Shown here: positions 13,455-13,580 of the stretch, piece after piece | How positions within the stretch are numbered: the stretch's first letter is position 1 | How the letters are laid out: every line of letters starts with the position of its first letter | IMG/VR virus record: IMGVR_UViG_2703718778_000008 | Direction: 5' to 3' (one strand) | From: a virus | Lineage: Duplodnaviria; Heunggongvirae; Uroviricota; Caudoviricetes | Length of the DNA stretch: 27,657 bases | Position numbers and translations under genes: made by a program | The notes under the pieces: generated by a model | The model's database searches: none | What the model saw: the letters and a program-made list of their open reading frames with translations, nothing else | Told to the model about the DNA's origin: nothing

Positions 13455-13580
13455 TTGACATAACGATGTCTGGCGTTTTAAAAAAATGAATAACAATAAT
13501 AAACACTCTCCATAATTCCTCTTGCGCTCCCGTCAGGTATCTTCTCCTCTAAGTCTTGCCTGCCGGGAGCCTCTTTTTTC
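13455..13580 (+). ncRNA. candidate ~90-nt plus-strand small RNA (promoter plus intrinsic terminator), antisense to the esterase 3' UTR
   Basis: A perfect -35 TTGACA (13455-13460) is followed by a 17/18-nt spacer and TTAAAA/TAAAAA (13478-13484), giving a predicted TSS near 13491. A 12-bp stem with one mismatch, GCTCCCGTCAGG (13526-13537) / CCTGCCGGGAGC (13559-13570), is followed by CTCTTTTTTC on the plus strand only. No plus-strand CDS lies here. Confidence 0.35.

Follow-up and report, generated by a model that had tools for sequence, protein, structure and literature searches.

A candidate small RNA gene opposite the esterase–DUF1378 spacer of a P2-like Escherichia coli prophage, probably a diverged relative of PasA and PasC

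The 27,657 nucleotides (nt) of IMG/VR virus record IMGVR_UViG_2703718778_000008, referred to at their full length as the window, represent a P2-like prophage that is 99.8% identical to one in E. coli SCU-106. Between its NanS-p-type esterase gene and a small gene for a DUF1378 membrane protein lies a spacer, the plus strand of which (13455–13580) had been predicted to carry a self-contained small RNA (sRNA) gene with a promoter and a terminator of its own. Comparison with related prophages, together with positional homology to PasC, PasA and EcOnc51/52, strongly supports this proposal. We put the probability at about 70% that the locus is an independent, convergently transcribed sRNA gene which belongs to the esterase cassette and is a diverged variant of the PasA/PasC/EcOnc51-52 kind. 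The predicted RNA is a new sequence class in the same slot, homologous to these sRNAs by position and analogous to them in architecture. By the published BLAST definition it is not a member of PasA/PasC: the window spacer matches only its own type in blastn. Its stem also lacks GCCAG/CTGGC.

In pathogenic E. coli, the regulation of host functions and of virulence is rewired by prophage sRNAs, the catalogues of which have been built with BLAST from a few founder sequences. The PasA/PasC scaffold is far wider and more diverse than the BLAST-defined family: it extends to most Shiga toxin 2 (Stx2) phages (approximately 300 Stx-phage records) and to a P2-like lineage, and it is represented by no Rfam family.

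Anatomy of the candidate locus

The following elements were located on the plus strand of the spacer.

13455–13460, plus strand: -35 hexamer TTGACA, read directly from the sequence
13478–13484, plus strand: -10-like element, read directly as TTAAAA (13478–13483, 17-nt spacer) or TAAAAA (13479–13484, 18-nt spacer); weak, without T at -7
13490–13580, plus strand: predicted sRNA of about 90 nt, its start (approximately 13490–13492) placed by the rule hexamer +7 and its 3' end in the U-run 13574–13579
13491–13505, plus strand: A-rich unstructured 5' segment with four to five consecutive A-R-N triplets (AAC AAU AAU AAA); unpaired probability 1.00
13506–13513, plus strand: CUCUCCAU, single-stranded C/U-rich motif and candidate seed, ATGGAGAG on the sense strand; unpaired probability 0.99–1.00
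13516–13523, plus strand: UUCCUCUU, second accessible C/U-rich motif, AAGAGGAA on the sense strand, which is Shine-Dalgarno (SD)-like; identical in the three window-type sequences
13526–13570, plus strand: terminator hairpin of 12 bp with one U/C mismatch and a 21-nt loop, arms at 13526–13537 and 13559–13570
13574–13579, plus strand: run of six U, terminator tail and likely Hfq proximal-face site, its last U 1 nt before the esterase stop codon

The promoter hexamers and the 12-bp stem are thus present where the original prediction had placed them. The arms of the stem, GCTCCCGTCAGG and CCTGCCGGGAGC, differ from perfect complementarity by one T/C mismatch in the DNA, and CTCTTTTTTC (13571–13580) lies directly 3' of the stem, next to the esterase stop codon at 13581–13583 of the minus strand. 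The plus-strand RNA has a folding energy of -23.2 kcal/mol (z = -4.8), a value equalled by none of 200 shuffled sequences. The hairpin itself has an energy of -22.1 kcal/mol on the plus strand versus -19.1 kcal/mol on the minus strand. Since the minus strand reads GCGCAAGAGG beyond the hairpin and has no U-run, the hairpin is not the terminator of the esterase gene, as had been concluded earlier; a GC-rich stem followed by a U-run on the transcribed strand, the hallmark of a Rho-independent terminator, is found on the plus strand only.

Three exposed C/U-rich motifs had also been predicted. Their coordinates are correct, and the two in the 5' half, the first of which includes CUCUCC at 13506–13511, have unpaired probabilities of at least 0.99 in the predicted fold; the third, CUUCUCCUCU at 13541–13550 inside the hairpin loop, is less exposed, with a value of 0.83. 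Taken alone, within the window, the hairpin is the sole feature clearly beyond chance and the promoter is not compelling.

Conservation of the scaffold among related units

Spacers were collected from four annotated phages and 80 IMG/VR loci, giving 48 distinct sequences upstream of DUF1378. TTGAC is invariant in all 48, at a fixed distance of 24–25 nt from the DUF1378 start, and is also found in PasA, PasC and the tandem unit of prophage PP2. These last three were included in a comparison of 42 distinct units from Stx and lambdoid phages. On the strand antisense to the esterase gene each of the 42 presents TTGAC(A), 17 nt, an A-rich hexamer, a body giving an RNA of 78–96 nt and a GC hairpin, after which at least five T abut the esterase stop. 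The hexamer occurs among the relatives as TTAAAA, TAAAAA, TTAGAA, TAGAAA, ATAAAA, TCAGAA and TGAAAA, and the terminator loops measure 11–36 nt. The 17-nt promoter spacer and the body diverge widely among units, and the stems are not all alike. Conservation of promoter and stem in related prophages had been named as a check on the original prediction: the scaffold is kept in the 42 units, but the window stem does not have the sequence seen in PasA, PasC and the Stx-phage units.

Within the common stem class, compensatory double changes were observed at three of the nine pairs (C-G to A-U, G-C to A-U, and a C-G/U-G/U-A series). In this class 89.7% of cells are paired, versus 20–52% in slid controls, and its covariation score was reached by only four of 500 shuffles. 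The U-G intermediate, at pair 8 of the family stem, pairs on the antisense strand only. In the curated annotation of phage 434, opposite-strand terminators are marked at both equivalent sites.

The motif UCUCCAU is common to nearly all DUF1378-linked Stx-phage units, in which it lies 5' of the hairpin, and is missing from PasA and PasC. Among the three window-type sequences the 5' half of the RNA is identical save for one change at the foot of the stem, and the loop motif is not constant, reading CUUCUCCUCU, CUAUUCCUCU and CUUUUCCUCU in the three closest relatives.

Twenty-three family members went into a covariance model (R1): 20 Stx-phage units, the tandem PP2 unit, PasA and PasC, but no sequence of the window type. 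Over the whole window, searched on both strands with filters off, the best match of the model, a moderate one, was 13455–13580 on the plus strand, which is exactly the interval specified beforehand (23.3 bits, E of about 0.008, a rough value good to within a factor of about 5). The same model retrieves PasA, PasC, EcOnc51/52 and the unit of Sakai prophage Sp5. Its second match in the window, 105–201, owed its rank solely to generic terminator features and was rejected as having no relation to the family: it is an ordinary bidirectional terminator. Positions 163–201, near the edge of the window, form a classic intrinsic terminator of the bidirectional type, AAAAAGCCCGCAG...CTGCGGGCTTTATTTTTT.

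Experimentally known relatives

PasA and PasC were discovered by RIL-seq, the sequencing of RNA interactions captured by ligation, in enteropathogenic E. coli (EPEC) E2348/69, and northern blots confirmed their sizes and Hfq dependence (Pearl Mizrahi et al. 2021, PMC8550237). PasA runs from 743499 to 743415 and PasC from 1290909 to 1290832 of NC_011601, both antisense to their flanking genes (Table S6, PMC8550237). Both are RIL-seq hubs, found in many Hfq-mediated RNA–RNA chimeras with many core and accessory mRNAs, and EcOnc51/52 are given as their homologues in enterohaemorrhagic E. coli (EHEC) (PMC8550237). EcOnc51 and EcOnc52 were identified by Hfq crosslinking and analysis of cDNA (CRAC) in prophages Sp12 and Sp4 of EHEC Sakai and are Hfq-bound (Tree et al. 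2014, PMC4104026). The PasA/PasC family has been defined operationally by blastn similarity, with a 3' stem-loop and poly-U as a family feature (Zhu, Shabalina & Storz 2026 preprint).

When the PasA and PasC loci were fetched, both were seen to be units of the same scaffold beside SASA esterase genes. The 3' end of PasC, which lies in prophage PP5, is at 1290832 and the esterase coding sequence ends at 1290830, so that PasC abuts the stop codon like the window RNA. Placing the start at hexamer +7 predicts 78 nt for PasC, versus 79 published, and 85 nt for PasA, versus 85 published; for EcOnc52 the rule and the 5' edge of the Hfq-CRAC peak agree to within 1 nt, subject to possible differences between record versions. 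Since three independent experimental 5' ends fit the rule, the promoter geometry explains them.

Two tandem units are present in E2348/69 PP2 (L007:2465–2567 and 2615–2735, minus strand) and in Sakai Sp12 (L109:1417–1537 and 1585–1684, plus strand). PasA/EcOnc51 forms the outer unit of the pair, and it is the inner unit that lies directly at the esterase stop. The published minor PasA species of 236 nt ends exactly at the terminator of the inner unit, at the esterase stop, which implies read-through of the PasA terminator.

The unit of Stx2 prophage Sp5 in Sakai (L110:6587–6702, minus strand, equal to NC_002695.2 1272086–1272201) is missed by blastn with either PasA or PasC. These two queries match 28 phage records, none of them window-type, and no Rfam family covers PasA, PasC or the Sp5 unit. 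We found no place where the DUF1378-linked Stx-phage units are named as sRNAs.

Genomic setting of the cassette

Two genes flank the spacer, and a short open reading frame (ORF) lies within it.

13581–15647, minus strand: NanS-p-type esterase gene, 688 amino acids (aa), with DUF1737, SASA and DUF6645 (Pfam and annotations)
13262–13435, minus strand: DUF1378 small membrane-protein gene, 57 aa, SD sequence GAGGTG at 13439–13444 (Pfam E = 2.7e-27; annotated in 16 E. coli genomes)
13478–13513, minus strand: sense mini-ORF MESVYYCYSFF (stop), 11 aa, ATG at 13513, with SD-like AAGAGGA at 13517–13523

All annotated genes from approximately 7.8 to 20.6 kb are on the minus strand, in agreement with the earlier description of the surroundings, and their order is capsid, X, holin, lysozyme, LysB/LysC, esterase, DUF1378, R, S, baseplate V, W, J and I. 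The original prediction had the RNA antisense to an esterase-to-R spacer, having missed the DUF1378 gene; because this gene intervenes, the RNA would be antisense to the esterase–DUF1378 spacer instead. The -35 hexamer of the candidate promoter sits in the 5' leader of DUF1378, on the opposite strand.

Together, the genes for the esterase and DUF1378 make up a cassette, some 2.4 kb long (13250–15660), that is inserted between lysB/lysC and tail gene R. The same esterase–spacer–DUF1378 junction occurs in lambdoid prophages, where it is located upstream of DUF826, holin and lysozyme genes, and four genomes hold a window-type unit in this lambdoid arrangement. Homology between the P2-like copy and a lambdoid copy (L002) spans only 13377–15375, which places the recombination breakpoints inside the DUF1378 and esterase coding sequences; the N-terminus of the esterase and the C-terminus of DUF1378 differ between the two contexts. 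Within the shared segment the promoter block 13436–13490 is identical at 55 of 55 positions, and its flanks are 89–97% identical. In the annotated relatives the sRNA unit is invariably joined to the 3' end of the esterase gene. There is a physical link between the scaffold and the esterase stop codon; the scaffold behaves as an esterase-linked unit, and with the esterase it has moved into a P2-like late operon.

DUF1378 is present in 309 phage records, mostly of Stx-converting phages. Its coding region also matches, with 75.5% nucleotide identity, LC727881.1 (37995–38139) and LC727895.1 (42967–43111), both segments being annotated as an inserted Mu-like phage within two Stx-converting phages; the phage types in which DUF1378 is found thus number at least three. 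A DUF1378-based search of species-representative genomes gave no confirmed relatives.

The exact window spacer was found in 16 of 5,426 complete E. coli genomes and in two IMG/VR contigs, and in the representative genome of no other species. A search of the species-representative genomes for the exact window-type hairpin pattern returned 17 matches, all of them unrelated GC-rich hairpins in non-enteric bacteria. The window variant thus appears, from these searches, to be confined to a few E. coli prophages. A literature search for a transcript or terminator described between nanS-p and DUF1378 found nothing, and the practical gain for the window is a confident annotation of an otherwise unannotated spacer.

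Proposed function

We suggest that a sigma-70-type promoter with a perfect -35, a 17–18-bp spacer and a weak -10 would start plus-strand transcription near 13490, presumably in the lysogen, at a time when the late operon of the phage is silent. The resulting transcript of about 90 nt would end at the GC hairpin and U6, next to the esterase stop. With an unstructured 5' half, composed of the A-R-N repeats followed by CUCUCCAU and UUCCUCUU, then a 3' hairpin and a U-tail, the product would have the layout of an Hfq-binding sRNA. A-R-N repeats are the motif of the Hfq distal face (Tree et al. 2014, PMC4104026), and we infer that the segment 13491–13505 could bind Hfq. What is shown here is the anatomy, the conservation of the scaffold, a position in common with validated sRNAs and a moderate profile match; transcription of the window variant, its association with Hfq, its seed and its targets are inferred.

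In trans, the accessible C/U-rich 5' region would pair with purine-rich mRNA regions at SD sequences or start codons. The best seed candidate is plausibly UCUCCAU, which would pair with ribosome-binding regions of the GGAGA/AUGGAGA type. The earlier view of the C/U motifs as anti-SD seeds therefore remains plausible for CUCUCCAU, which is accessible and contains a motif common in Stx-phage units; the loop motif is a poor candidate, since it is less accessible and its sequence is not the same in the three closest relatives. The body and terminator stem have either been exchanged for others or diverged so far that BLAST no longer recognizes them, and the window RNA would therefore be expected to have a target set of its own. 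Provided that this RNA is expressed, the Hfq network of the host would receive a different seed from each sequence class.

In cis, the RNA would be fully complementary to the esterase–DUF1378 intercistronic RNA, and a role like that of lambda OOP is possible by analogy. The tight linkage to the esterase stop suggests that such a role might separate expression of the esterase from that of the downstream lysis or tail genes.

A broader model may be offered, although as a whole we consider it doubtful. NanS-p-type esterase morons would carry a modular sRNA slot, in which a fixed promoter/terminator scaffold at the esterase stop holds a body, and hence a seed, that is swapped or evolves fast. PasA and PasC would be only the part that BLAST can see of a superfamily represented in more than 300 Stx-phage records, and the slot would have moved with the esterase into P2-like myoviruses. 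The RNA would act both in trans, through Hfq, and in cis in the manner of OOP, uncoupling the esterase from downstream lysis or tail genes, and UCUCCAU/ATGGAGA may be used on both strands.

Alternative explanations

Several observations weigh against an sRNA gene of the PasA/PasC kind. A consensus promoter and terminator scanner called neither element at the locus; for the terminator this is because the 21-nt loop is long, beyond the limit of 8 that the scanner allows. At -7 the -10 carries A in place of T, and the window hexamer has no TG extension, which can be read upstream of the PasA/PasC hexamer. Body and stem are unrelated to those of PasA and PasC, and the GCCAG/CTGGC core that is invariant in the other members is missing. 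With blastn (word size 11), the window spacer matched only the 16 window-type genomes among the 5,426 E. coli genomes, E2348/69 and Sakai being among those searched, and Rfam yielded only chance snoRNA matches, both in the whole window at the gathering threshold and in 13200–13800 at E <= 10. The R1 score must be read with its rough E-value in mind and against the 19.2 bits obtained by the unrelated terminator at 105–201, so that much of it comes from generic promoter/terminator features. The hairpins show no strand bias: among 21 stems the sRNA strand is the stabler in eight and the sense strand in 12, and the difference averages about zero; the strand assignment consequently rests on the U-run and the promoter. 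The conserved UCUCCAU could equally be a start site read on the sense strand, the Sakai Sp5 unit has no listed Hfq-CRAC peak, and the 5' end of PasA may result from processing (Zhu, Shabalina & Storz 2026 preprint).

How far do these points favour other readings? It is highly improbable that chance brought a hairpin, an A-run and TTGACA together in this AT-rich spacer. In 2 x 27.6 kb chance alone should supply about 13 perfect TTGACA hexamers, and the scanner made no call, but the arrangement recurs in 42 distinct, diverged units at fixed positions relative to two homologous genes, and the top R1 match fell exactly on the 126 nt specified beforehand within some 55 kb searched. A more serious, though still unlikely, alternative is that the locus is a decayed or silent descendant of a Pas-like gene whose promoter is too weak for a meaningful RNA, so that at most a terminator on the plus strand would still work, keeping stray antisense transcription out of the esterase gene. 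This would account for the poor -10 without extended TG that the scanner left uncalled, for the rarity of the variant and for the lack of a listed CRAC peak at the related Sp5 unit, and decay does occur in the family, since the PasA-3 variant has no terminator and is possibly a pseudogene (Zhu, Shabalina & Storz 2026 preprint). Against it, all 42 units have retained the -35, the length of the spacer and the place of the hexamer, and the promoter block is unchanged between two phage contexts while its flanks differ by 3–11%. Moreover, the hexamer of PasC (TCAGAA) is even poorer and PasC is still abundant, and apart from the single stem-foot change the 5' half of the RNA is the same in the three window-type sequences.

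The spacer could also be read wholly on the sense strand: the hairpin after the esterase stop would protect or process the late mRNA, the SD and ATGGAGA short ORF would load or couple ribosomes between esterase and DUF1378, and the plus-strand promoter would be incidental. The sense strand is certainly transcribed during lytic growth, ATGGAG follows GGAGG, GGTGG or AGAGGA in most units, UCUCCAU serves this reading as SD plus ATGGAGA, and across the family the hairpin is equally stable on either strand. We nevertheless give this reading little credence, less than that of a silent descendant. It leaves unexplained the invariant TTGAC at a fixed 17 nt from an A-rich hexamer, and equally the fact that the run of at least five T is always antisense, the sense side having a functionless A-run before the stem. 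The mini-ORF peptides, of 4 to more than 24 aa, are unrelated in sequence, and PasA, PasC and the PP2 unit retain the scaffold but have no such ORF; members with this scaffold are proven antisense sRNAs, and the pair-8 U-G intermediate is a pair on their strand only. For the same lack of conservation in length and sequence, and its absence from PasA/PasC, the mini-ORF was rejected as a conserved peptide, although it may have a bare translation-start function. A sense-strand element of this kind can coexist with an sRNA gene rather than replace it.

Comparison with known systems

Lambda OOP and P22 sar are short phage RNAs that have their own promoter and terminator, run against an operon and are complementary to an intercistronic or 3' region of its mRNA. 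OOP overlaps the 3' coding end of cII, and sar covers the ribosome-binding site of ant. The predicted window RNA differs in that it ends before the esterase stop and starts approximately 55 nt from the DUF1378 start, thereby covering neither a coding sequence nor the DUF1378 ribosome-binding site. A type I toxin–antitoxin arrangement was rejected: the opposite ORF has 11 aa here, ranges from 4 to more than 24 aa without sequence relationship in the relatives, and is absent from PasA/PasC.

AsxR and AgvB (RF02703 and RF02702) are, as proposed for the window, short sRNAs that bind Hfq; their genes lie in the moron region of lambdoid prophages and converge with late transcription, and the RNAs combine a conserved 3' part with a variable 5' part, as in the scaffold family. 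They differ in site, between stx (or PR') and the esterase start, and in length, 51–60 nt. Identity with AsxR/AgvB was ruled out by the different site, the different family and the lack of an Rfam match in the window. By analogy with AgvB we also considered a GcvB sponge; the predicted duplex, at -35.4 kcal/mol versus -37.8 +/- 4.7 for shuffles, was no better than these. Upstream of the Sp5 esterase, Rfam finds a convergent STnc100/AsxR pair (L110:2923–3182), so that the Stx2-phage esterase gene is flanked by sRNA genes on both sides. No counterpart of this pair was found upstream of the esterase gene of the window, which has no Rfam match anywhere.

PasA, EcOnc51 and EcOnc52 share with the window the promoter–terminator scaffold and its orientation between the esterase and downstream genes, their RNAs being 77–85 nt long and Hfq-bound. 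In RIL-seq PasA also pairs with the 3' coding ends of esterase genes. PasA differs in being the outer tandem copy, about 150 nt from the esterase stop, and in a sequence unrelated to that of the window RNA; its inferred seed, GCCAGCACCU, lies in the terminator arm. The prophages of PasA and PasC are lambdoid and carry these genes beside holin–lysozyme genes, whereas the window cassette lies between lysB/lysC and R.

The geometry of PasA and PasC is recovered in the window, with a position convergent with a SASA esterase gene, a 3' stem-loop with poly-U and a predicted RNA of about 90 nt. PasC is a particularly close parallel, since it occupies the same cassette slot, is convergent with a prophage SASA esterase gene and has a U-run ending at the esterase stop. 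TTGACA, 17 nt and a hexamer precede an RNA of about 80–90 nt with an unstructured 5' half and a 3' GC hairpin with poly-U. PasC has been validated experimentally and the window RNA is an in silico prediction; their stems and bodies are unrelated (GCUCCCGUCAGG in the window versus a GCCAGCG core in PasC), and PasC lacks UCUCCAU. Finally, PasC belongs to a lambdoid prophage and the window copy to a P2-like late operon, where DUF1378 and tail gene R follow. The DUF1378-linked Stx-phage units, such as those of Sakai Sp5 (1272086–1272201), ST2-8624 and Lyz12581Vzw, differ from the window in their GCCAG/CTGGC terminator core and in a U-rich rather than A-R-N-rich body; they agree with it in flanking genes, distances, -35, A-rich hexamer and UCUCCAU.

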